Source: a virus
DNA length: 64,000 nt
Direction: 5' to 3' (one strand)
Virus record (IMG/VR): IMGVR_UViG_3300035670_000083
Coordinates: 1-64,000 of that record
In this document: one piece after another, positions 38,328-50,677 of the stretch
How positions within the stretch are numbered: position 1 is the first letter of the stretch
Layout of the letters: each line of letters begins with the position of its first letter
Translations under genes and position numbers: made by a program
Notes under the pieces: model-generated
Seen by the model: only the letters and a program-made list of their open reading frames with translations
What the model was told of the DNA's origin: nothing
Database searches by the model: none

Positions 38328-38975
38328 TTAAAGTGGAAGTTCTTCTTCTCCTTCTTCACCTTCTGTTTCTTCTCCTTCTATTTCCTCGAATTCTCCTTGT
38401 CCCTGAGCTTGTCCTTGCATCTGAGTTTGTCCCTGAGCTTGTCCTTGCATCTGAGCTTGTCCCTGAGCTTGTCCTTGCATCTGAGCTTGTCCCTGAGCTT
38501 GTCCTTGTCCTTGAGCTTGTCCTTGCATCTGAGATTGTCCTTGCATCTGAGTTTGTCCTTGAGATTGTCCTTGCATTTGAGGTTCTTCTTGCATCTGTCC
38601 CTGTCCTTGCATTTGACCTTGTGGTTGTGCTTCCACTTGAATCTGTGCTTGTTGACCTTGAGGTTGAGTCTGTACTTCTCCTTGTCCTTGTGCATCACCA
38701 GTTAAAGCTCCTGCTGGAATTTGATCAACATTTAAGAAGTTCTGTGTTATATATTTTACAACTTCTTCAGCTATATCAACATCACCAAAGAATTGTCTTA
38801 GGTTTTTACCAGTGTTGTCTTTCACTTTCTTAACATAAGCGTTAATCATTGATTGTGGTATGTCAATCATTGTTCTCACCTTATAGATGTCGTTAACTTG
38901 TAGAACAGATTCTTTAATGATCTCTTCTTTTCTTTTTTTGGTTTGATAGTTTCCAAATTTTCTAATATGTTTCAT
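38328..38975 (-). CDS. Protein with MKHIRKF leader and Gln/Gly-rich repeat tail
   Basis: QGQAQMQGQAQ repeats; acidic end. Confidence 0.7.
   Translation of the reverse strand: MKHIRKFGNYQTKKRKEEIIKESVLQVNDIYKVRTMIDIPQSMINAYVKKVKDNTGKNLRQFFGDVDIAEEVVKYITQNFLNVDQIPAGALTGDAQGQGEVQTQPQGQQAQIQVEAQPQGQMQGQGQMQEEPQMQGQSQGQTQMQGQSQMQGQAQGQGQAQGQAQMQGQAQGQAQMQGQAQGQTQMQGQAQGQGEFEEIEGEETEGEEGEEELPL
38395..38580. repeat. Coding tandem repeat (QGQAQMQGQA, about 30 bp unit)
   Basis: CCCTGAGCTTGTCCTTGCATCTGAGCTTGT and variants in tandem. Confidence 0.85.
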
Positions 38976-40116: not shown

Positions 40117-40644
40117 ATGATTAAAAGAATTGTATCATATGACTTTGATGGAACTTTATGTTTCACACCTGAACCTATTGAAGGTGAAAAAGTTTGGAAA
40201 AAAGAAACTGGAACCGATTGGCCTTATACTGGTTGGTGGTCAAAAAAAGAAACATTGGATTTGAATATTTTTGATATTCCTGTTAATCAATTTGTTTATA
40301 GGAAATATCTTGATGATATGGCTCGTAAAGAGGAAAAGAATGATACTTTTGTATTGTTGGCAACTGGTAGACTTGAAAGATTAAGAAAAGAAGTTGAAAA
40401 AGTTCTGAATCATCATAACTTATCATTTGATAAGGTTTCTCTTAATACAGGTGGAGATACTTATACATTCAAGAAAAGACTTTTTGAGGATTTGATTAAA
40501 GAATATAATCCTGAGGTTTTTGTTATGTATGATGATAGGCATGAGCATTTGGTAAAATTTGAAGAATGGGCGAAAACACAACCTTGTCGTGTAGAAATCA
40601 TAGATGTTACTAAGAGTAATAAAACACCAAAAATTATAAATTAA
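40117..40644 (+). CDS. HAD-superfamily phosphatase
   Basis: YDFDGTL, ATGR, K, YDDR; TATATTTG at 40080-40087 upstream. Confidence 0.8.
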   Translation: MIKRIVSYDFDGTLCFTPEPIEGEKVWKKETGTDWPYTGWWSKKETLDLNIFDIPVNQFVYRKYLDDMARKEEKNDTFVLLATGRLERLRKEVEKVLNHHNLSFDKVSLNTGGDTYTFKKRLFEDLIKEYNPEVFVMYDDRHEHLVKFEEWAKTQPCRVEIIDVTKSNKTPKIIN

Positions 40645-40648
40645 AAAT

Positions 40649-40930
40649 ATGAGTACAATAACAGAAAAAAAATCAAAATCAAAAGTAGATGAAATACTTT
40701 CAAAGCCATTTAAGTTGATTCTTCACAACGATGATTATAATTCCTTCGAATGGGTAATAACTTGTTTGATTAAAGTTTGTGGACATGATCATCAACAAGC
40801 TGAGCAGTGTGCTCATATAGTTCATTTTAACGGTGAATGTGATGTTAAAAGAGGTGATTATGAGAAACTATCTGTGATGAAGGAGAAATTACAGAATGCT
40901 GGTTTGTCAGTTACTATAGAATCAAATTAG
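40649..40930 (+). CDS. clpS: ATP-dependent Clp protease adaptor ClpS
   Basis: LILHNDDYNSFEWVITCL..VCGH...QAEQCAHIVHFNG...VK.G. Confidence 0.9.
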   Translation: MSTITEKKSKSKVDEILSKPFKLILHNDDYNSFEWVITCLIKVCGHDHQQAEQCAHIVHFNGECDVKRGDYEKLSVMKEKLQNAGLSVTIESN

Positions 40931-40951: not shown

Positions 40952-40982
40952 CTGAACCTCACATTACATATACATCTTGTTA
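40952..40982. repeat. Site S0: truncated attC-like site (right arm only)
   Basis: CTGAACCTCACATTACATATACATCTTGTTA is nearly identical to the right arm of S4 (43349-43379). Confidence 0.7.
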
Positions 40983-41117
40983 TATTCAGTAATTTTTAAA
41001 TTATTTTCAAAAAATCGTTTTTTTTTTTTATTAATATATAGAATATAAATATTATCAGAAGAAATGAAAAATGTAAAACTATATAAAGTGGATACGTATT
41101 AATTTTTTTATTACACA

Positions 41118-41160
41118 TAACGTTCCGATTATTTGCGTTCGGTGGGGCGTTACACCACCA
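41118..41160. repeat. Site S1: degenerate attC-like site (left core only)
   Basis: TTATTACACATAACG is identical to the approach to S9; no matching right arm. Confidence 0.55.
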
Positions 41161-41171
41161 ATGATTATTAT

Positions 41172-42004
41172 ATGAGTAAAGAAATGAGAAGGTTAATAGT
41201 TACTTTTAATAAGTTTGTTATTAAAGAAAAGTCTAATAATATTAAAAAATAGTTTCAAAATATGATGCTCCGTATGGAATTATTTTTGATGGGGAAAACA
41301 AAATATTAGTTGGTGATATGCACCAAACACCAGTTGAATTATCTAAAAAACTTGAAAATAAAGTAGTTAATGTTGCAAACAAATATGGTTATTATGGTGA
41401 AGGTATTGGTTTGGAACATAACGAAGCAATCACCAAATCATCTTTTTATGAAAGATTAGACCCCAAAAAACATTATGGTTCTTGGGATAGAAAATTAATT
41501 GAAAGTGGTGAAGTACCTGAAGATAAAAAATATTTTTTTTTGTATGCTTTGTTTTCAAATCCAAAAGAAAATCATAGATTAGAAAAATTATTGGAAAATA
41601 CGGAAGAAGAAGATACAATTTTTTATGTCTTACTAAAAACTATACCCGATTGGTCAGCAGATATGGGTAAATTTAGTTTAGGACAAAAAGAACTAAATAA
41701 ATTTCTTAAAGAAATAAGTGAAAATGGAATTGATTTTATTCAAATGTCACAACAAAAAGCAGATGAAAAATCATTATCAGAATTTTTAGATTTAGGAGAA
41801 AAATTACAATGGCCTGAAAAAAATTGGCAAGATTATCCAAATATGGCAGGTAAATTTGCAAGAGTGGCGACAACCATTAGAGACCAATTTTTAATTAATG
41901 CTGGACCTGGGGTTTATTTTGTCGGTGCGGGACATCTTAAAGATATTGTAAAAATGGGCAAAGAAAAAAAATTATCTTTAATAGGGGGCGAAAAAATCAT
42001 GTAA
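41172..42004 (+). pseudogene. Frameshifted cassette gene (leader MSKEMRRLIVTFNKFVIKE)
   Basis: ATG at 41172 stops at TAG 41250; adding one A to the run at 41244-41249 joins it in frame to ORF 41318..42004. Confidence 0.65.
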
Positions 42005-42017
42005 AAAATATTGTGTA

Positions 42018-42065
42018 TAACGTCCGATGATAAACAATCGCTTTAATGTTGTTTATCATTTGTTA
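42018..42065. repeat. Site S2: attC-like hairpin
   Basis: TAAC-GTCCG-ATGATAAACAA-loop-TTGTTTATCAT-TT-GTTA; perfect 11 bp stem. Confidence 0.9.
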
Positions 42066-42143
42066 TATTCAGTTAAATTTTTTCAATTATTTCAAAAAAC
42101 CGTTTTCTTTATTAATATATAAAAGAAAAATAATATTAAAACT

Positions 42144-42818
42144 ATGAAACATATAAAAAAATATGAAACTTTTCTAGAAAAAAAATGGATACTAGGAATA
42201 AATGAAAACATTTTTGATAAAATTGAATCACTAGTTAAGGGAAAATCAGACTCTGGTAAAATTATATCCGAATTCTTAACTAAGAACGGAATTAAAGAAA
42301 CTGGGACTGCATATTCAATTCTCTATTTGGGCGGTGCTAATCCAGGCAAATCCGAATTAAGTCACCCATTTGATTATTTACATTATACACCAGGTATCGC
42401 TAAGATTACAGAAGATGGTGTTTTAGTATTAAATGATGAAAAATCTAAATCATTAAAAACACCAGATACATTATCATTTCTAGCAATTATTGAAAAAGAT
42501 GATATTGTTAAAAATTGGACATTTGGATTAAAACAAGGGTGTAGTGTAAATAAAAATGATTATACTTTTGATTTAACAAAGGATATTTCAACTCTAACTT
42601 TTAAAAAATCTATGTGGTCAATGTTGAAACAAACTTGGATTAAAGGAGAAGATGAAGTTGTAGAACTTGATAATGATATTACTGAACTTAAAGAGGAAGA
42701 TACTATATCCTTCAAAACCCCTATGAATATGATAACTCTACAACAATGGGTTGATAAGTTGAATGAGACAGGATGGGTTAAAGAAAATAGTAAATATTTT
42801 AAAGAATATATAAAGTAG
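42144..42818 (+). CDS. Cassette gene, hypothetical, MKHIKKYETFLE leader
   Basis: Single ORF between S2 and S3 with own TAATATATA (42113-42121). Confidence 0.75.
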   Translation: MKHIKKYETFLEKKWILGINENIFDKIESLVKGKSDSGKIISEFLTKNGIKETGTAYSILYLGGANPGKSELSHPFDYLHYTPGIAKITEDGVLVLNDEKSKSLKTPDTLSFLAIIEKDDIVKNWTFGLKQGCSVNKNDYTFDLTKDISTLTFKKSMWSMLKQTWIKGEDEVVELDNDITELKEEDTISFKTPMNMITLQQWVDKLNETGWVKENSKYFKEYIK

Positions 42819-42901
42819 GCAATAATCCACAAATAAAAAACACCAATTCGTTAAGTGAAATTGATTATTTTATATCCACAATTGGAAAACGAAACAGAAC
42901 T

Positions 42902-42949
42902 TAACGGTTGAGAATATGTGTTCGTTTTAATGACACATATTCTTTGTTA
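42902..42949. repeat. Site S3: attC-like hairpin
   Basis: TAAC-GGTTG-AGAATATGTGT-loop-ACACATATTCT-TT-GTTA; same geometry and nearly the same loop as S2, different stem sequence. Confidence 0.9.
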
Positions 42950-42975
42950 TATTTAGTATCAAAAATTTTATACAA

Positions 42976-43218
42976 ATGAAAAAATGTAAATGTATTAAAG
43001 AATCTTCTTGGTTTTTAATTGATGATTCCTTCGATAAGAATTCTAAATTAAATGGTGGTGGATTTTCTTTTCAAGTAGGTAGTGAATATGATTATTTTGA
43101 AGAAGATACACCATTTGGAAATGGTATGTCGGTTATCCATCCTAAACATGGGAAAGAAAATCCTACTGGTTTTGATGAAAGAAGATTCTACGAACACTTT
43201 GAAATAATAAACTCATAA
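42976..43218 (+). CDS. Cassette gene, hypothetical 80 aa
   Basis: Single ORF between S3 and S4. Confidence 0.7.
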   Translation: MKKCKCIKESSWFLIDDSFDKNSKLNGGGFSFQVGSEYDYFEEDTPFGNGMSVIHPKHGKENPTGFDERRFYEHFEIINS

Positions 43219-43236
43219 AATTTTTGATATTGAACC

Positions 43237-43379
43237 TAACGATACTCAGATATATTTAGGTTTTCTTTTTAATGTAGTGTGAGATTTGAAACACTACCTG
43301 TCAATATACCAACAAACTCTATTAGAAGCACTTACCTTCAATTAACCACCGAATCTCACATTACATATACACCTTGTTA
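43237..43379. repeat. Site S4: chimeric attC-like site
   Basis: Left 37 nt identical to S6 left arm; remainder is a different hairpin (GTAGTGTGAGATT...AATCTCACATTAC) ending ACATATACACCTTGTTA like S8. Confidence 0.8.
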
Positions 43380-43488
43380 TGTGTAGGTGTGATTATTTAC
43401 CACCAAACTCTATTCGGAGAACTGAAAGAAAATTTTAGAAAAAAGAAGGGAGGGAAATTTAATTCAGAATATTTTATATATATCATCT

Positions 43489-44304
43489 ATGATACTCAAA
43501 TTTAATCAGTTTATAACTGAAAGACTTTCCTATTCTGAAGATGTTGAGATGATCTCAAAGATTATAATTGAATACTTATATGGTAAAGAAAACTGGGAAT
43601 CAGAAGAAGTGATAAAAATAGATAATTCGGTTATAAATGAAGTAAGAATACAATTCATAGATAATTTAAGTAAGTTAGGAAAAAAATCATCATTTAATCC
43701 AAATAAATCAGATTATAATAATCGTATGATATTTTTAGAATTTGATCCAGATGAAATCACCGAAGGATTGTTAAATCATGAAGTATTTCATGGGTGGGAA
43801 TGGATTCGAAATGAAGGAAAACATTTAACTAATTCTTTTCAATTCGCAATTATTCAATTAAATAATTACTTTGAAGAAGATGAAAACATATCTGAAATTA
43901 TTCAACTATTTTATTTAATGTCAGATGCTGAAATTAGATCTCATTTAAATAGTGATATATTTGAATTTAAAAGATGGAAAGAGGATAAAAATACCACTTC
44001 GATGGAAGAAATAGATTTATTAATAGAGGAAACAGATACATTTCAAAATTATCAATTTGTGAAAAAATTTAATCTAAACGAATATTTAAATAAATTGAGT
44101 ACTGAGAAATTAGATGAATTTATATCAGCAGTTGAACAAATGAAGTATATGAAAGATGGTGAAGAGTCTGAAATTATGGTGAAGAGATTTTCTGATTTAG
44201 AGAGAAGTAAATTTATACAAAAGTTAAATATTATACACAAACAACAAAGTGAAAAAATTACTAAATATTTAGGAAAATTAATATTATATTTCAGAAACTC
44301 TTAA
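43489..44304 (+). CDS. Cassette gene, putative zinc metallopeptidase with MILKFNQFITE leader
   Basis: LNHEVFHG (HExxH) plus downstream DAEIRSH glutamate. Confidence 0.6.
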   Translation: MILKFNQFITERLSYSEDVEMISKIIIEYLYGKENWESEEVIKIDNSVINEVRIQFIDNLSKLGKKSSFNPNKSDYNNRMIFLEFDPDEITEGLLNHEVFHGWEWIRNEGKHLTNSFQFAIIQLNNYFEEDENISEIIQLFYLMSDAEIRSHLNSDIFEFKRWKEDKNTTSMEEIDLLIEETDTFQNYQFVKKFNLNEYLNKLSTEKLDEFISAVEQMKYMKDGEESEIMVKRFSDLERSKFIQKLNIIHKQQSEKITKYLGKLILYFRNS

Positions 44305-44345
44305 ATTTTTTTTAGAAAAAATTTATTTGATACATTTTTAATTAC

Positions 44346-44353
44346 TATATTTG
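44346..44353 (+). promoter_or_regulatory. Bacteroidota-type -7 promoter element
   Basis: TATATTTG 20 nt upstream of ATG 44373; TTTG at 44326-44329. Confidence 0.6.
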
Positions 44354-44372
44354 CGTATATAATAAAAATAAA

Positions 44373-44626
44373 ATGGAAAATCTCAAACAAGAAAATAACT
44401 ACGAAAAATTTGTTATCAGACAGAAGGTGGTTGGGTATTAAAAGAAGGCGTGGCTAAAAAGGAAGAGATAAGTTTTTTTGTTGTTAGTCCTGATGGTAAA
44501 GAACTTACTTGTTTAGATGGTTCAAATATATTCTCTTCTGTTGATAAATCTGATTTGTTAGAATCGTTTAATATGAGGTTTAAAACAAACTGTGTTAGTG
44601 TAGAAAGACCAAATGTTTTTGAATAA
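44373..44626 (+). pseudogene. Frameshifted cassette gene (about 84 aa if repaired)
   Basis: MENLKQENNYEKFVI then one base missing near 44418, then TEGGWVLKEGVAKKEEISFFVVSPDG...RPNVFE*. Confidence 0.6.
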
Positions 44627-44652
44627 GAAAATAATTGAAAAATAATTCAATA

Positions 44653-44732
44653 TAACGGTTGCAAATATGAGAAGTAAATTTTTTCCATAAAAAAATAGAA
44701 AAATCAAAATTTATTTCTTATATTTGTTGTTA
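44653..44732. repeat. Site S5: attC-like hairpin
   Basis: TAAC-GGTTG-21 bp stem with two G:T pairs-TT-GTTA. Confidence 0.88.
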
Positions 44733-44758
44733 TATTTAGTAAAAATTAATTTATACAT

Positions 44759-44938
44759 ATGAAATACGAAGCACTTAAAAAAGAATATTATGCAGTTTAT
44801 GAAAAAGAACCAAGACACCAGAATGAAAAGAATGGTGTGATACTTGCACCATATAACACGAAAGAAGAAGCTGAACAAGCGAGAATTAAATATGGTTATA
44901 GTGATGATAACTACTATGTTGATAAACTCATAAATTAA
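44759..44938 (+). CDS. Cassette gene, hypothetical 59 aa, absent from the ORF track
   Basis: MKYEALKKEYYAVYEKEPRHQNEKNGVILAPYNTKEEAEQARIKYGYSDDNYYVDKLIN fills the S5-S6 interval. Confidence 0.7.
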   Translation: MKYEALKKEYYAVYEKEPRHQNEKNGVILAPYNTKEEAEQARIKYGYSDDNYYVDKLIN

Positions 44939-44951
44939 TTTTTATTGAATA

Positions 44952-45073
44952 TAACGATACTCAGATATATTTAGGTTTTCTTTTTAATATATACTAAAAA
45001 CAATTTATGAAAGATAATAAACACATAAAAAGTTTCAACGATCATCAAGAAAACTTGAATATATCTGATGTTA
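44952..45073. repeat. Site S6: attC-like hairpin with promoter and gene start in the loop
   Basis: TAAC-GATAC-TCAGATATATTTAGGTTTTCTT...AAGAAAACTTGAATATATCTGA-T-GTTA; 22 bp stem, two G:T; TAATATATA at 44985-44993, ATG at 45007. Confidence 0.9.
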
Positions 45074-45288
45074 GTGGTAGTGAAATATTAAAATATCTTG
45101 ATGATAAATATCATGTAAAAGATAATCTAATGATTGTTGGTAGATTTGATAAGAACAAAAAATATAATTATATTCAATTGTCTAATGAAATATCAAAGGT
45201 ATTTGGTTTGTCAACACAACAATCATTAGATTTAGTAGAAAAGTGGAAAGATATTAGATTTGAGAAAATTATGAAAAATAGATTTTAA
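45007..45288 (+). CDS. Cassette gene beginning inside site S6
   Basis: MKDNKHIKSFNDHQENLNISDV-SGS...; the Val codon is the GTT core. Confidence 0.75.
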   Translation: MKDNKHIKSFNDHQENLNISDVSGSEILKYLDDKYHVKDNLMIVGRFDKNKKYNYIQLSNEISKVFGLSTQQSLDLVEKWKDIRFEKIMKNRF

Positions 45289-45302
45289 TATTTAATTATC
45301 AC

Positions 45303-45350
45303 TAACGTCCGATGATAAACAATCGTTTTAATGTTGTTTATCATTTGTTA
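45303..45350. repeat. Site S7: attC-like hairpin
   Basis: Identical to S2 except one loop base. Confidence 0.9.
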
Positions 45351-45461
45351 TGTGTAGGTGTGGATTATTTACTACTAAACTTCAATCGGAGAACTGAACA
45401 AAAATTTTAAAACAAAAAGAAGGGTGGGTTTTTTAATCTTACTATTTATATATAAAAGAAA

Positions 45462-45890
45462 ATGATGAAAGATTTGAGACAGTTTATTAAAACAACCATA
45501 CGTGAGTTTTTGAATGAAGCATACATTGATGAGGATGGTAATTTAAAAGACTTTAATGATAAAATATTCTATGATTTTGATAAAATTAAAAAGTTTGTAG
45601 ATTGGTTTCAAAGTGAATATAGTGATTATACTCATAAACAGGGTTGGTCTATATTCGATTCTGATACAGAAGCACCTAATGAAAAATATCATAGTGAAAG
45701 AACTTTTAATGGTAAAAAATTGAATGGATATTATTGGCAAGTTCAAAGATTAGATTCACCAAGTGATGACGAAGCATTATTTGGGAAATTACCAAATGAT
45801 TATAAGGCTGATGATTTAGCAAGAAAGTTAGGTTTAATGGTTGATGAATACGGTGTGGTTTATGGTTGGGATGGACAATCTTTTTTATAG
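45462..45890 (+). CDS. Cassette gene, hypothetical, MKDLRQFIKTTIREFLNE leader
   Basis: Single ORF between S7 and S8 with TTATATATA upstream. Confidence 0.75.
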   Translation: MMKDLRQFIKTTIREFLNEAYIDEDGNLKDFNDKIFYDFDKIKKFVDWFQSEYSDYTHKQGWSIFDSDTEAPNEKYHSERTFNGKKLNGYYWQVQRLDSPSDDEALFGKLPNDYKADDLARKLGLMVDEYGVVYGWDGQSFL

Positions 45891-45960
45891 TGTGTGGGAT
45901 TTTTCTTTTAAAATTTTCAACCGAAATATTGATTAGAACGATGAATGGAACACTTACACA

Positions 45961-46050
45961 TAACGGATGGGTGTATATGTAGGTTTTTTAACTTTAAAAT
46001 TTAATATATACTTATGAACTGAATAAAAAACTTACATATACACCTTGTTA
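45961..46050. repeat. Site S8: attC-like hairpin with TAATATATA in the loop
   Basis: TAAC-GGATG-GGTGTATATGTAGGTTTTTTA...TAAAAAACTTACATATACACC-TT-GTTA; 21 bp stem, one G:T. Confidence 0.9.
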
Positions 46051-46081
46051 TGTGTTAGTAAAAAATAAAAGGAAAAAGAAT

Positions 46082-46387
46082 ATGAAAAGATTAAAATACA
46101 TTAAAAGATTCAATGAATCAAATGAAATGGATATTGAAATTGAATTAATTGGTCCTGATATAGATGATATTTTAGATGCAATTAACTTCATAAACAATAA
46201 CTATGATGTGAGTGTAAATCCAACAGATTTTCAAGAAGGTTCTGATATGCCTTATGCTCATAAAAGAAATCAAAATTATTCAATTTTTGTTAAGTTAAAT
46301 CCTAGTGGTGATGAAAAAAGTCATATCAGATTTATTAATGATTTGTTGGATGAAAACGGATTCTCTTGTAGGTTGTATATGATTTAA
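46082..46387 (+). CDS. Cassette gene, hypothetical, MKRLKYIKRFNES leader
   Basis: ATG at 46082 preferred over the GTG at 46052. Confidence 0.75.
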   Translation: MKRLKYIKRFNESNEMDIEIELIGPDIDDILDAINFINNNYDVSVNPTDFQEGSDMPYAHKRNQNYSIFVKLNPSGDEKSHIRFINDLLDENGFSCRLYMI

Positions 46388-46414
46388 TGATATTATTTAT
46401 TTTCTTATTACACA

Positions 46415-46544
46415 TAACGATACTCAGATATATTTAGGTTTTCATTTTTAATATATAAACAAAAATAATTTAACAACATGAAAAGTTCAAATAATGTAAA
46501 AAGTTTCAAAGAGTTCAATGAAAACTTGAATATATCTGATGTTA
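46415..46544. repeat. Site S9: attC-like hairpin with promoter and gene start in the loop
   Basis: Same family as S6 with compensatory change (TTTTCATT/AATGAAAA versus TTTTCTT/AAGAAAA); TAATATATA at 46449-46457, ATG at 46478. Confidence 0.9.
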
Positions 46545-46708
46545 GTGATAGTTTTTTGTCACCCGAAGAATTTTTAATTGATTGGGAAGGTAAAGATGAT
46601 TCAACACACCCCAATCAAGATATTAGAGACGAATGGACTAAAAGAATTAATCAATTAAAAATTTATTCAAAAATGGTTCTTGATAACACTTTAAAAAATT
46701 ATCACTAA
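46478..46708 (+). CDS. Integrase-proximal cassette gene beginning inside site S9
   Basis: MKSSNNVKSFKEFNENLNISDV-SDS...; its stop TAA is part of the terminal TAAC core. Confidence 0.75.
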   Translation: MKSSNNVKSFKEFNENLNISDVSDSFLSPEEFLIDWEGKDDSTHPNQDIRDEWTKRINQLKIYSKMVLDNTLKNYH

Positions 46709-46745
46709 CTATATTATATATGTAATGACCTATAAATAATTGATT
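46706..46745. other. Site S10: candidate attI-like primary integration site
   Basis: Last TAAC core, followed by T rather than G and by no hairpin; 36 nt before the integrase ATG. Confidence 0.6.
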
Positions 46746-47549
46746 ATGAATGAAAAGGGTAAGTCAACTTTAAAGATTTGTGAACAAAAACTTAATTATC
46801 TAAATTATTCTAAAAGAACGATTGATAATTATTTATCACATATTAATAGATTTTTAAAATCACAAAATAAATCATGTTTGCATTTATCATCTAATGATTT
46901 TCAGTCATATTTAGATAATTACAAATTTACTTCTATATCGCAACAAAACCAAGTTATTAATTCTATTCGATTTCTTTATAAAGAAGTTCTCGGTAAAAAG
47001 TATGATAAAGTCTCTTTCAAAAGACCTAAATCTGAAAAGAAACTTCCACAGGTTATAGATGGTGATTATATAAAATCACAATTATCTAAAATTGATAATC
47101 TTAAACATAAGGCAATCCTCACACTAACATACTCGGTTGGATTAAGGGTTTCTGAAATAACCAATCTTAAAATTGAAGACATTGATTCAAAAAGAATGAT
47201 CATTCATATAAAAAATGCAAAAGGAAAGAAAGATAGGATTGTTCCACTTTCTGAAAATGTTTTAAATTTGCTTAGATATTATTGGAAACAATATAAACCA
47301 AAAGAATACCTTTTCAATGGATTATCCGGTAGATATTCAATTCAATCCTGTCAGAAAATATACAAAAAATATATTGATGAAAAATCATCATTTCATACAT
47401 TAAGACATTCTTCATTTACTAATTTACTTGAGTCAGGAACAGATTTGCGGATAATACAGAAAATAGCAGGTCATTCAAGCTCAAAAACAACCGAAATATA
47501 TACTCACGTTTCAAATCAAATTTTAAGGAAAGTTAAATTACCCATCTAA
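46746..47549 (+). CDS. Tyrosine recombinase, integron-integrase-like but without the IntI insertion
   Basis: SAM-like N-domain (YSKRTIDNY, SISQQNQVINSIRFLYKEVL), KKLPQVI, catalytic GLRVSE, AKGKKDR, HTLRHS, AGHSS, TEIYTH all intact. Confidence 0.92.
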   Translation: MNEKGKSTLKICEQKLNYLNYSKRTIDNYLSHINRFLKSQNKSCLHLSSNDFQSYLDNYKFTSISQQNQVINSIRFLYKEVLGKKYDKVSFKRPKSEKKLPQVIDGDYIKSQLSKIDNLKHKAILTLTYSVGLRVSEITNLKIEDIDSKRMIIHIKNAKGKKDRIVPLSENVLNLLRYYWKQYKPKEYLFNGLSGRYSIQSCQKIYKKYIDEKSSFHTLRHSSFTNLLESGTDLRIIQKIAGHSSSKTTEIYTHVSNQILRKVKLPI

Positions 47550-49748
47550 TCCCCAAGATTTTCTAGCTTCTACCATCCTTCTATTATAAGAGATTTTATT
47601 TCTTCTTATATCCAGTAATTGTTTATAATCAACTCCTTCTTCATATGATATTTTATTTAAAATATCATCAACTTTATTTCTTATCTGTATATCTTCTAAA
47701 TTATCAAAATAATCATCTACCATCCCTCTGAAATCATTCTTACCAAAAATAGATGTTAGGTTAACCAAAGTCATAACCGTATCATCATTTTTATTACCAT
47801 CAGCTTTATAAGTAATATTTCCAGTTCTTGTTGTATGTTTTATAAATGTTGTCATTTCATCTATATTTTCGTTATTATAAATAATAATTGATCTATCTTG
47901 CATTTTTTCTTGGTAATCTTTCACCATTAGGTTTTTATTCTCACCAACTTTTAATCCTATTTTTTCATCTAACGCATCTACTCTGTGTTTAAATCTAAAG
48001 AATATAGATGATCCATAGTTGTTATTTCCTTCAAATACATTCGGTAAGTGAGCAAGTAACTCATATCCGTATGTATTGACTTCTAATACAGCTTTTAAAT
48101 TATCTGTATCAAAATGATCAAAAGCTAAAACATAAAGTAATTCTGATAATTCATTGACGGATATAAGATTGCTTCTATACATTCCTATTTGTTCAAGTTG
48201 AATAAAGTCAAGTATGTTTCTATAATTCTTATTTTGTCTTTCTATTAGATCTATCGGCTTTGATTTTAATTTGAAAATATTTATCACCGTATAGTCCTGT
48301 CCTAATCCTTCAGATACATCTATACTTAATAGTATCCGATAATTTTTTCTTATTTGTGGATTATAAATTTCTTTATTCGGATGCCATTTTAGATCTTTGT
48401 AAGAGAATTTAAGTTTTTCTTCTATTTCAGGAATTTCCTGCCATTCAAATAATGTTTTTCTATCAGTTAATTCTTTTATTAATCCATCATCTAATAATGA
48501 TCTAGATGAGTTAATAAACTTCAAGTCAAATTCTTGGTTAAAAGCTTCTTCACCACCAATATCTTTGATTGTTTGTTTTTTCCAAGTTGTTATTTCAGCA
48601 ATTTCTGGTAATTTAATATCATTTATTGTTTCTTTAATGATATCTTCTTCCTGACAATCATCAGAATTAAAAACATGAACAACCCACTTATTTAACTCGT
48701 CATCAAATCTCAGCTCTGATTTATTTTTTGGAAAAGATTCTTTAATCCTACTTAAAACATCTTCTGGTTTGACATTGTAGTGATCTAATTTCTTTTGATT
48801 CAATCTTATGTATGTCACGAATCTTTTCGGAACTTGCCACCAATAAACTCTTTTTGCCACATAAGATGATTTTTCGCCTTCAGGCTTTTCAGCTTCTATT
48901 AAAAGTTTGTGAAATAAATTAAATCCGTTTGGAGTAGAGGTTATTATAATTTTAGAATTATCGATGTTGGCAATAGTAGGAAACACCGATTTGTAGAATT
49001 TATCTGCAATATTATCTGGTAGATAAGCAAACTCATCTAAATATAAAAAGTCAGCAGATTGACCGATAGAAGCGGTTTTTGTTGTTGCAAATCCTTTTAT
49101 ACGACTTTTATTTTCAAATGACATGAATTTCTCATTCCACTTTTTAATACCTTGTTGTAAGAAAAATGGAAGTCTTTGGTATATTTCTTTCATTTTATCA
49201 AGGATCTCAGTTGCTGTATCCAACTTATTTGCTGTTACAAGAACGTTTTTGTTATTATTAAAAAGAACAAAATGTAATATGGTTATTGCTGATGTGATAG
49301 TATTATGTGATAAAATACCATTTGTATAATATCTATGATTTGGATGATCAATAGATAAATCAAACATAGATAGTTTATGATTTGTTTTTTCTATCATTTT
49401 AACTTTTGATATTCCTTGATCAGTTTGTATGTAATCGCCTATTTTTAAATCTTTTATGTATATTTGATTAAAGTCCACATCAAATAAAATGTGATTATCA
49501 GCACCGTTAAGAAATAGTCCATTTTCTAGTTTTAAATTATATTCACTATAAGGTTGTGTTATATGTATTTGCGGAGCTATTTCATAACCAGTGTCTGTTT
49601 TCACTGATAAGTTGCAACTTATTGTATTCAATATCTTTTTGGATATATCATGTTCATTCAAATCTAAATTTCTGTATTCGAAAACTTCTATATACTCAAT
49701 TAATTTTTTTATTAAATATATTATGATAAGAGTAAAAAATCTAAACAT
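47538..49748 (-). CDS. terL: Terminase large subunit, C-terminal part preceded by C-intein
   Basis: Intein blocks then SHN|TITSA; LYLDEFA (Walker B), IITSTPNG, SIDVSEGLGQDY, NDDTVM. Confidence 0.9.
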   Translation of the reverse strand: MFRFFTLIIIYLIKKLIEYIEVFEYRNLDLNEHDISKKILNTISCNLSVKTDTGYEIAPQIHITQPYSEYNLKLENGLFLNGADNHILFDVDFNQIYIKDLKIGDYIQTDQGISKVKMIEKTNHKLSMFDLSIDHPNHRYYTNGILSHNTITSAITILHFVLFNNNKNVLVTANKLDTATEILDKMKEIYQRLPFFLQQGIKKWNEKFMSFENKSRIKGFATTKTASIGQSADFLYLDEFAYLPDNIADKFYKSVFPTIANIDNSKIIITSTPNGFNLFHKLLIEAEKPEGEKSSYVAKRVYWWQVPKRFVTYIRLNQKKLDHYNVKPEDVLSRIKESFPKNKSELRFDDELNKWVVHVFNSDDCQEEDIIKETINDIKLPEIAEITTWKKQTIKDIGGEEAFNQEFDLKFINSSRSLLDDGLIKELTDRKTLFEWQEIPEIEEKLKFSYKDLKWHPNKEIYNPQIRKNYRILLSIDVSEGLGQDYTVINIFKLKSKPIDLIERQNKNYRNILDFIQLEQIGMYRSNLISVNELSELLYVLAFDHFDTDNLKAVLEVNTYGYELLAHLPNVFEGNNNYGSSIFFRFKHRVDALDEKIGLKVGENKNLMVKDYQEKMQDRSIIIYNNENIDEMTTFIKHTTRTGNITYKADGNKNDDTVMTLVNLTSIFGKNDFRGMVDDYFDNLEDIQIRNKVDDILNKISYEEGVDYKQLLDIRRNKISYNRRMVEARKSWGLDG
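49302..49748 (-). mobile_element. Split intein, C-terminal fragment
   Basis: Block B-like ADNH, IKDLKIGD, block F MFDLSI...YYTNGI, block G SHN followed by Thr. Confidence 0.88.
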
Positions 49749-50677
49749 TTTTGTATTGTTTCTTTTTTATTCTTACGATATTCAGAATCCCATATTACTA
49801 GAACTTCAAATCCGTGAGATTTTGCTACATCTAACTTTATTTTATCTTTTTCCCAAATTTCTTCCGATTTTCTTCCCTTTCTGAAAGGATGTGGATAATC
49901 ATCACTTTTAAAAATATTTGGATTGGCATGATACTGATCACCATTATATTCAATTATCTTTTTATTTTTAAGATAAACAAAATCATACATCCAGATACCA
50001 CCACCATTCTTAGGTAGTCTAAATTCACCACCATTTGTAGCATATAGAGAATCTTTTTTGTTTATACTAATGGAATCAAATAGTTGCTGGCTACTTTTTG
50101 AGTATCCTTGTTTAAGATTTCCATTTTTAAGTAAAGAATTTTGCCATTTAATCTGCCTTTCTGTAAAAATTCTTTCACCATCCTCAGTTCCATATTTTTC
50201 TATACACTTATCTAAGTTAAATGTAGTTTGTCTTTCTCTTCTTTTTTCAATTGATTCATCTTCTGTAAATCCTTTATCTATCCAATATTCTAATTTTGTA
50301 GGATTTGGTTTTTCTTCGTTAACTGATTTTATAAAATTTAATCTTTCTTCATCAGATTCATAATTTTTGAATTCTTTTGAAAACGGACTTCTACTTTTTC
50401 TTTCTTCAGATGTAGTATTTGACTTGTGATTAGGATTTTTTTCACCAGAGAACATATCAGAGAACATCTTTTTATATTTTTCTTCTTTCATGTGTTTTCC
50501 GGAGTTTTTAGTAGTTTGTTTTAAATCTGATTTACACATTAATGGTGATCCCGGAAAAAGTTTTTTATATTCTTTTGATGACATTCCATTGTGCTTATGT
50601 TTTAAGTGTTTACCATATATCCTTTTGCATTTTTCACCACAAATTCTACAAGTTATTAAGTTATCTATTTCTTCCAT
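49721..50677 (-). CDS. Free-standing homing endonuclease (Vsr/DUF559-like C-terminal domain)
   Basis: CRIC...HLKHKH zinc finger; YDF....KIIEYNGDQYHANP...KDKIK...GFEVLVIWDSEY; sits between the terL halves. Confidence 0.8.
   Translation of the reverse strand: MEEIDNLITCRICGEKCKRIYGKHLKHKHNGMSSKEYKKLFPGSPLMCKSDLKQTTKNSGKHMKEEKYKKMFSDMFSGEKNPNHKSNTTSEERKSRSPFSKEFKNYESDEERLNFIKSVNEEKPNPTKLEYWIDKGFTEDESIEKRRERQTTFNLDKCIEKYGTEDGERIFTERQIKWQNSLLKNGNLKQGYSKSSQQLFDSISINKKDSLYATNGGEFRLPKNGGGIWMYDFVYLKNKKIIEYNGDQYHANPNIFKSDDYPHPFRKGRKSEEIWEKDKIKLDVAKSHGFEVLVIWDSEYRKNKKETIQKCLDFLLLS

Follow-up and report, generated by a model that had tools for sequence, protein, structure and literature searches.

An insertion-less relative of the integron integrases adjoins an array of hairpin gene cassettes in phage DNA

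Introduction

The tyrosine recombinase gene at positions 46746..47549 on the + strand of a 64,000-nucleotide stretch of viral DNA, referred to here as the window, raises the question of what is done by an enzyme that resembles the integron integrase IntI but lacks the segment specific to IntI. The window comprises positions 1 to 64,000 of a 100,284-bp IMG/VR virus contig (IMGVR_UViG_3300035670_000083), which CheckV rates as 18% complete and which has a GC content of ~27%; the query gene is the only tyrosine recombinase match in that record. Gain of the I2 helix is held to have turned an Xer-like enzyme into a recombinase of folded single strands, and no intermediates are known (PMC7790495, PMC4792948). 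Escudero et al. treat the acquisition of I2 as the step from double- to single-strand recombination, with the use of XerCD by CTXphi as the only similar reaction, and a viral origin of integrons has been speculated upon (PMC4792948). Smyshlyaev et al. described the insertion as "not fully conserved" in an integron-like subgroup and made no link between such proteins and arrays, while a preprint on Myxobacteria viruses mentions classical integrons only. No description of a phage system that combines an insertion-less integrase with a cassette array was found in the literature searched, in which subscription journals were thinly covered. A preliminary description, made from the sequence alone, had proposed that the protein belongs to a sister family of IntI, that this family may process hairpin sites differently, and that its arrays would be missed by tools requiring the IntI signature.

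Domain composition and fold of the recombinase

Translation from the ATG yields a protein of 267 amino acids, which is also the public gene call (P0001), and an in-frame TTG at 46740 would extend it to 269. Residue numbers used here (R136, Y254, etc.) follow the 269-residue form and are obtained by adding 2 to P0001 numbers. The open reading frame is intact in the window, and its translation contains TSISQQNQVINSIRFLYKEVL, RPKSEKKLPQV, and DRIVPL...YWKQYKPKEYLF. In an alignment with family members, IntI1, and XerD, residues R136, K161, H219, R222, H245, and Y254 all occupy invariant columns, and the catalytic residues are unchanged throughout thousands of homologues. Pfam recognizes a Phage_integrase catalytic domain (PF00589, 6e-34) and a Phage_int_SAM_4 N-terminal domain (4.6e-13). 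An AlphaFold model built from 23 family sequences (pLDDT 88.8) has a confident, intact fold; together with the Pfam matches and the alignment, it identifies a tyrosine-recombinase fold with the R-K-H-R-H-Y residues in place. Between the helices at 170-183 and 199-209 (P0001 numbering), the model contains two short strands only and no additional helix.

Comparison with solved structures placed VchIntIA (2a3v) first in Foldseek (E 1e-15, TM 0.68-0.70). In VIA-align, VchIntIA gave the best identity (32% over 257 aligned residues of its 317-residue chain, rmsd 4.3) and XerA the highest Z (22.0). Since XerA, XerH, and VchIntIA fall within ~2 Z units of one another, kinship is undecided by the fold alone. 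The best full-length sequence match among solved structures was XerA (4a8e), at 117 bits in a single unbroken alignment.

Absence of the I2 insertion

The integron integrase profile TIGR02249 (315 positions) matches the recombinase in two pieces, at positions 3-180 and 254-312, and the match is interrupted exactly where the insertion would be; the unmatched positions, 181-253, served as a stand-in for the intI_Cterm profile of IntegronFinder. Alignment with VchIntIA (PDB 2a3v, 109 bits) equates recombinase residues 21-175 with 16-174 and residues 212-260 with 260-308, so that 36 residues lie between the aligned blocks in the phage protein vs 85 in VchIntIA. The same interval is ~49 residues longer in IntI1. 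The preliminary description had portrayed a protein of about 267 amino acids with IntI-like N-terminal motifs and a full R-K-HxxR-H-Y set, which runs directly from DRIVPL to EYLF without the extra segment of IntI. The first statement held in the translation, the alignment, and the N-terminal profile score (below), and the second in the profile gap, the VchIntIA and IntI1 alignments, and the model.

The background given for the expected role of the segment, that the I2 helix of IntI helps to recognize extrahelical bases, agrees with the eight VchIntIA residues known to hold two such bases: Q145, W157, K209, Y210, W219, P232, H240, and H241 (Larouche and Roy, PMC3053210). Q145 corresponds to E146 and W157 to K158 in the phage recombinase, and the other six fall in the missing stretch. 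A search for histidine in recombinase residues 176-211 found none.

The NCBIfam integron integrase models scored 160.3 bits (TIGR02249, cut-off 265) and 98.8 bits (NF011946, cut-off 435), while IntI1 reached 507 and 798, respectively, in the same run. The XerA profile NF040815 gave 175.8 bits, under its cut-off of 220, and the XerC and XerD profiles TIGR02224 and TIGR02225 gave ~140 bits vs cut-offs of 335 and 330. Residues 1-110 alone scored 51 bits with TIGR02249, 34 with XerA, and ~20 with XerC and XerD; the catalytic half alone scored 136 with XerA, 121 with XerD, and 102 with IntI, the last in two pieces. The protein is composed of an IntI-like N-terminal domain and a short, Xer-like catalytic domain without the I2/β-4,5 insertion. 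The strong IntI match that would have signified an ordinary integron was not found, TIGR02249 and NF011946 both being below cut-off and intI_Cterm having been assessed by proxy only. The features of IntI that are lacking are the I2/β-4,5 insertion, scores above the curated cut-offs, the residues for extrahelical bases, and placement in the IntI clade. The recombinase is not an ordinary IntI, as it falls below each curated cut-off tested and outside the IntI clade.

Relationship to IntI and Xer recombinases

A tree of 78 sequences was built with IQ-TREE (LG+C20 PMSF), using XerC/D-type proteins of the same genomes as the outgroup. A search for IntI in 301 small genomes of the GTDB class of G001, a MAG labeled Gammaproteobacteria, found none, and the IntI references were therefore confined to plasmid IntI1 and proteins from Nitrospirota, a narrow sample. 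The 12 IntI rows are monophyletic (100/100) on a long stem, and the insertion-less clade, which includes the query, comprises 47 rows (97/88). IntI and the insertion-less rows group together with 100/100 support, separately from XerC/D and archaeal XerA; the node uniting IntI with the insertion-less clade has 80/59 support, and the XerC/D-type outgroup splits off at 100/93. Nine of the ten archaeal XerA rows constitute a separate first-branching clade, and the tenth (L207) lies at the base of the clade containing IntI and the insertion-less proteins. The proposed status as a sister family of IntI is thus supported by the tree, with the reservations that IntI sampling is narrow and that the joining node stands at 80/59. 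Because the outgroups are without the insertion, the simplest reading is that it was gained once on the IntI stem. The recombinase fails every tested IntI-specific criterion and yet is the nearest kin of IntI; it probably does an IntI-type job in a different way, its activity being inferred.

The phage family (19 rows, 100/98) is nested among Bacteroidota lineages of the insertion-less clade. In the clade adjoining it, arrays of hairpin sites were detected in 7 of 10 members, these calls being dependent on an author-defined TAAC/GTTA motif. Homologues are very numerous: the best 120 protein clusters are 77-100% identical and 266-288 amino acids long, and 207 stretches of IMG/VR encode relatives, the 80 best loci, on contigs of up to 362 kb, showing 58-81% identity.

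Several individual relatives merit mention. In five of them (P0134, P0136, P0137, P0140, and P0189; 530-650 amino acids) the recombinase is the C-terminal half of a longer protein. One Nitrospirota MAG (G005) encodes a canonical IntI (412 bits, TIGR02249) as well as two insertion-less relatives (L168, L173), and the two kinds of enzyme therefore coexist in one genome. A 79% identical copy (L088; DATGMV010000210.1, 2144 bp) was binned in a Fermentimonas (Bacteroidales) MAG; this copy probably represents phage DNA within the bin and offers a weak hint of the host group.

The hairpin array upstream of the recombinase gene

The strong hairpin sites of the 100-kb record are found only at 42018-46544, directly upstream of the recombinase gene. 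They belong to an array (40952..46709, + strand) of about ten small + strand ORFs without Pfam matches, which is situated between clpS and the integrase gene. The distal end is bordered by the ClpS adaptor homologue (40649-40930; Pfam 4.7e-18), itself preceded by a polynucleotide-kinase-like gene (40117-40644). The proximal end is a candidate attI-like junction (46706..46722, + strand) in which TAAC (46706-46709) is followed by TATATTATATATG, 36 nt before the ATG. Other neighbors are phage genes, with an opposite-strand terminase large subunit gene downstream and virion proteins farther upstream.

The integrase-proximal cassette carries a hairpin site of 130 nt with a 23-bp stem (46415..46544), whose right flank, GTGATAGT, pairs at 8/8 positions with the ATTATCAC that precedes the junction TAAC. 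Farther from the integrase, and also on the + strand, are sites at 45961..46050 (90 nt, 22-bp stem), 45303..45350 (48 nt, 13-bp stem), 44952..45073 (122 nt, its loop containing a promoter-like motif as well as the beginning of the following ORF), 44653..44732 (80 nt, 22-bp stem), 42902..42949 (48 nt), and 42018..42065 (48 nt); the last is 98% identical to the site at 45303. A chimeric or decayed + strand site at 43237..43379 has a left arm of the 44952 type and a right arm of the 45961 type.

All ORFs of the array face the integrase, and promoter-like TAATATATA motifs stand ahead of individual ORFs, promoter activity being inferred from the motif. On this inference, the array does not conform to the arrangement of promoterless cassettes read from a common Pc promoter away from attI. 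Two otherwise unrelated cassette ORFs (at 45007-45081 and 46478-46552) share their first ~25 codons with 77% DNA identity. This common start is encoded by the loop and right arm of sites 44952 and 46415, and these sites therefore supply a putative promoter, a start codon, and an N-terminal peptide. The TAA stop of the last cassette ORF (46478-46708) forms part of the junction core TAAC (46706-46709).

Arrays in related viral loci

The association of arrays with the recombinase was examined with a site finder that requires TAAC and GTTA 28-170 nt apart and an ungapped stem starting at most 7 nt from both cores; the need for exact TAAC and GTTA biases its counts to that motif. Across 80 homologue loci, it found 356 sites in 478 kb upstream vs 23 in 678 kb downstream, i.e., 0.74 vs 0.034 per kb, a 22-fold upstream excess. 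At least two upstream sites were present in 47 of the 49 viral loci with 58-81% identity and at least 3 kb of upstream DNA, and in these 47 the sites adjoin the integrase and lie on its strand. The finding that would have refuted the family's link with hairpin arrays, namely homologues never flanked by them, was thus not obtained. Arrays are not universal in the wider clade. No site was found in the full upstream flank of L052, a scan of viral DNA with P0128, a representative at 45-50% identity, recovered four loci of which one has an array and three have none, and arrays were sought without being detected at the integrase locus of Cellulophaga phage Ingeline and at L222, L224, and L225, all of the wider phage clade. 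The family therefore includes plain integrases as well, and the query enzyme could have a second role.

The 278 distinct sites contain many unrelated stem sequences in one architecture: TAAC, ~5 unpaired nucleotides starting with G, an uninterrupted stem of 11-23 bp, a loop, the returning arm, 1-2 nt, and GTTA. Site lengths cluster near 48, 85, and 125 nt, and the internal loop beside the core, 5 nt vs 1-2 nt, is constant throughout. Their stems contain 4397 Watson-Crick pairs, and G:T pairs number 402 if the + strand folds vs 27 if the - strand folds, as counted from a stem detector that is blind to wobble pairs. Only the fold of the + strand is conserved, and structure rather than sequence has been kept.

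The sequences flanking the sites define the repeating unit. The 8 nt after the GTTA of one site pair with the 8 nt before the TAAC of the next (mean 6.57/8, at least 7 in 59%), and the proximal cassettes of the window pair at 8/8. Within one site, pairing between the two flanks is at the random level (4.26 vs 4.30). It follows that the unit consists of a site and the gene after it, with flanks that meet around TAAC/GTTA only when the unit is circularized; the resulting 12-bp arm is inferred to form in the circularized unit only.

Differences between closely related contigs show a unit at differing positions, bounded by TAAC. Contigs L006 and L024 are 97-100% identical and have in common a 960-bp unit (99.9% identical) with TAAC at both ends, which adjoins the integrase in L006 and is distal in L024. 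In at least three groups of loci (L030/L031, L046/L047, and L041/L042/L044), the members agree completely to the right of TAAC, while their sequences to the left are unrelated. Almost every related locus has TAAC followed by TAT(T/A/C)ATATA ~35-75 nt ahead of the integrase start. The A/T-rich part of this junction may be the integrase promoter; as it resembles the promoter motif before other genes of the phage, its conservation need not reflect binding by the recombinase.

Neither terL nor clpS was found within 10 kb of any related locus, and genes downstream of the integrase are mostly unshared, so conservation is much stronger in the module of integrase and array than around it. The idea that the module occupies a fixed hotspot within a conserved backbone was rejected for want of terL/clpS synteny. 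As a system, the locus has the makeup of an integron, with a recombinase gene beside an array of one-gene units, folding sites of the AAC...GTT type, and a fixed proximal insertion point. On one related phage contig of 123 kb, seven further sites make up a second array (L004:18274-20606) ~7.5 kb downstream of the integrase, with no second integrase in view near it.

Relatives in cellular genomes

Relatives recovered in a scan of species-representative genomes are 40-55% identical and come mostly from MAGs and isolates of Bacteroidota; several of them are followed by arrays of the same site type. In Flavobacterium terrisoli PT-3 (L109:9800-18100) and Desulfitobacterium sp. Sab5 (L110:9731-20729), the latter with a complete chromosome, a recombinase of 347-368 amino acids (40-50% identical, with an N-terminal extension and no insertion) is followed by at least 8 genes. 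Each gene is followed by a site of the form ATAACGTnCC-stem...stem-T-GTTAT on the opposite strand, and the same flank rule applies. The polarity of the sites relative to the integrase is as in the phage, and the better-folding strand is antisense to the genes; over 14 cellular loci, the wobble count is 32 vs 10. That the favored strand is antisense to cellular genes argues for a role at the level of DNA rather than RNA.

Proteins of Bacteroidota, Bacillota, and Nitrospirota chromosomes that NCBI names "site-specific tyrosine recombinase/integron integrase" (NF040815) belong, like the phage enzyme, to the insertion-less clade, at 40-50% identity. Unlike it, they carry an N-terminal extension of 70-200 amino acids and point towards the array. 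The cassette genes of the cellular arrays, like those of classical integrons, run antisense to the strand that folds, whereas those of the phage are sense. A limited literature search found no publication describing the cellular arrays. Surveys with IntegronFinder 2.0 report integrons as very rare or nearly absent in Bacteroidetes and Firmicutes (PMC9024848).

Proposed mechanism

The anatomy and kinship of the protein, its association with arrays, the conservation of a one-strand fold, the TAAC unit boundaries, and the presence of a unit at differing positions are shown by the comparisons above. The likely explanation is that the enzyme is the site-specific recombinase of a platform for gene cassettes, integron-like but working without I2, on a very large phage that probably infects Bacteroidota; catalysis is inferred. 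The mobile unit would combine one gene with one hairpin site, made up of TAAC, a 5-nt loop with G as its first nucleotide, a stem of 11-23 bp with a variable loop, 1-2 nt, and GTTA, and would be excised as a circle. Circularization would bring the 8-nt end flanks of the unit together around TAAC/GTTA, and the + strand, when single-stranded, would form a 12-bp arm beside the long stem. Two recombinase monomers would bind both arms as they would a normal core site, one strand would be cut at the boundary of TAAC and the loop, and the partner in the exchange would be the TAAC junction that lies, in double-stranded form, ahead of the integrase gene, the product being resolved by replication in the manner of integrons. 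In this model, the marking of the strand and the silencing of the second monomer would depend on the lopsided DNA loop of 5 vs 1-2 nt and not on a protein segment that recognizes flipped-out bases.

The catalysis of these moves by the enzyme, a single-stranded substrate, circular intermediates, and avoidance of a second strand exchange are all inferred. Evidence for single-strand recombination is indirect only, consisting of the wobble bias of 402 vs 27. In the phage, this + strand bias may fit an RNA hairpin equally well, because the + strand is also the sense strand. The earlier suggestion that the family processes hairpin sites differently fits the anatomy of the sites, i.e., the 5 vs 1-2-nt loop, the unbroken stems, and the absence of single extrahelical bases, the biochemistry again being inferred. 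The suggestion that tools requiring the IntI signature would miss such arrays is a plausible inference.

A bolder reading is that hairpin cassette capture does not need I2 and predates it, that the insertion-less clade retains the ancestral integron machine with its asymmetry in the DNA loop, and that classical IntI is a later specialization. Taken as a whole, we lean slightly against this reading. Were it true, integron-like platforms would be common across phyla and viruses from which integrons are said to be almost missing, and large phages would stock accessory genes with their own promoters through such platforms.

Alternative explanations

An ordinary phage integrase for lysogeny, or an Xer-like dimer resolvase, might lie beside hairpins that are regulatory and shuffled by homologous recombination; the hairpins would then be terminators, RNA stability elements, or promoter-stem-loop cassettes of an accessory-gene region. 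In favor of this view, the closest relatives from isolated phages (Ingeline at 40%, Freya, and Leef) are annotated Bacteroidota phage integrases without an array, the folding strand of the phage sites is the sense strand, some loops hold promoter-like motifs and start codons, and exchange could use the repeated hairpins. Homologous exchange leaves unexplained, however, the breakpoints exactly at a 4-nt core with one side unrelated, the complementary flanks specific to each unit, and the fixed position and polarity of the array by the recombinase in 47/49 loci whose other neighbors are unconserved. A role in RNA is opposed by the cellular relatives, in which the favored strand is antisense to the genes. 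We consider this explanation unlikely.

It is likewise unlikely that the enzyme moves cassettes by classical double-stranded recombination, with two exchanges at short TAAC cores and hairpins that are either accessory (termination, replication pausing) or idle. The Xer-like catalytic domain, in which all IntI adaptations for single strands are missing, speaks for this possibility, as does the double-strand activity that IntI itself retains (PMC4792948, PMC7790495). In duplex DNA, however, 48-166 bp separate the conserved TAAC and GTTA cores, and each unit has flanking arms of its own, which would leave a sequence-reading dimer without a conserved second arm. Moreover, the 15:1 wobble bias and the covarying flanks show selection for pairing within a strand.

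Very unlikely is a relic, i.e., a former IntI that has lost insertion and activity beside arrays that are frozen or kept by a host IntI: integron pieces of host origin and attC clusters without an integrase do occur in phages (Qi et al. 2023, PMC9892861), but the whole insertion-less clade is monophyletic and outside IntI, which fits poorly with a recent deletion, the catalytic residues are invariant over thousands of homologues in a gene far better conserved than its neighbors, arrays differ between near-identical contigs, and integrons are very rare in Bacteroidetes by IntegronFinder surveys (PMC9024848).

Comparison with known systems

The preferred reading, an integron-like platform working without I2, invites comparison with the classical integron (IntI1; Vibrio cholerae VchIntIA/IntI4, PDB 2a3v). 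The two have in common an IntI-type N-terminal domain and sister lineages in the tree, an integrase gene at one end of the array and transcribed away from it, and sites with AAC...GTT cores that are defined by how they fold and not by their sequence, folding being favored on one strand. In both, new units enter beside the integrase at the proximal junction, the site lies at the distal end of its unit, and crossover is at the integrase-distal core. The phage system differs in an enzyme without the I2 helix/β-4,5 region, in sites whose stems are unbroken and whose internal loop next to the core is 5/1-2 nt, and in genes that are sense to the folding strand, face the integrase, and apparently have their own promoters (inferred from motifs), all carried by a phage.

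The reaction of XerC/XerD on the folded single-stranded attP of CTXphi, an IMEX, is similar in that it requires no I2 and joins a hairpin to a double-stranded site by a single exchange that replication resolves (PMC4792948). CTXphi, however, borrows host enzymes to insert its whole genome into dif and has no cassette array, whereas the phage recombinase described here is self-encoded and lies outside the XerC/D clade. Archaeal XerA (PDB 4a8e, 5hxy) resembles the phage enzyme in its short catalytic domain; it differs in resolving chromosome dimers at dif and in not being associated with arrays, and the phage enzyme is under the NF040815 cut-off. CALINs and integron fragments in phages likewise place hairpin sites and cassettes in phage genomes, including those of phages with Bacteroidota hosts (Qi et al. 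2023, PMC9892861). Those cases differ in that they rest on the classical attC model and IntI1 tests, and their phage integrases are canonical, host-derived IntI; neither a phage-encoded insertion-less recombinase nor a fixed junction beside one is described there.

The insertion-less proteins constitute a large, well-conserved natural clade, the closest to IntI, that has no I2 and is linked with hairpin-cassette arrays in phages and bacteria alike. Such a clade makes it possible to test whether single-strand recombination needs I2, what the DNA loop does in its stead, and which came first. Platforms of this kind would be under-counted by tools that depend on the IntI signature, and this may explain why Bacteroidetes and Firmicutes seem almost devoid of integrons (PMC9024848). 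A wealth of unknown phage accessory genes may reside in the arrays, and a minimal 267-residue recombinase acting on short structured sites could serve as a tool.

Additional features of the window

Just downstream of the recombinase gene, the terminase large subunit ORF (47538-50677, - strand, 736 amino acids) has PHROG matches from about residue 114 onward only, and its start is a Hint/intein-like stretch. A 318-residue ORF of unknown function (phrog_22677) overlaps the terL start; terL is possibly split or intein-bearing. On the other side of the array, a long imperfect tandem array with a 12/18-nt period (TTGTCC TTGCAT CTGAGC type) occupies 38331-38690, within a 215-residue minus-strand ORF (38328-38975) that encodes a repetitive low-complexity protein.
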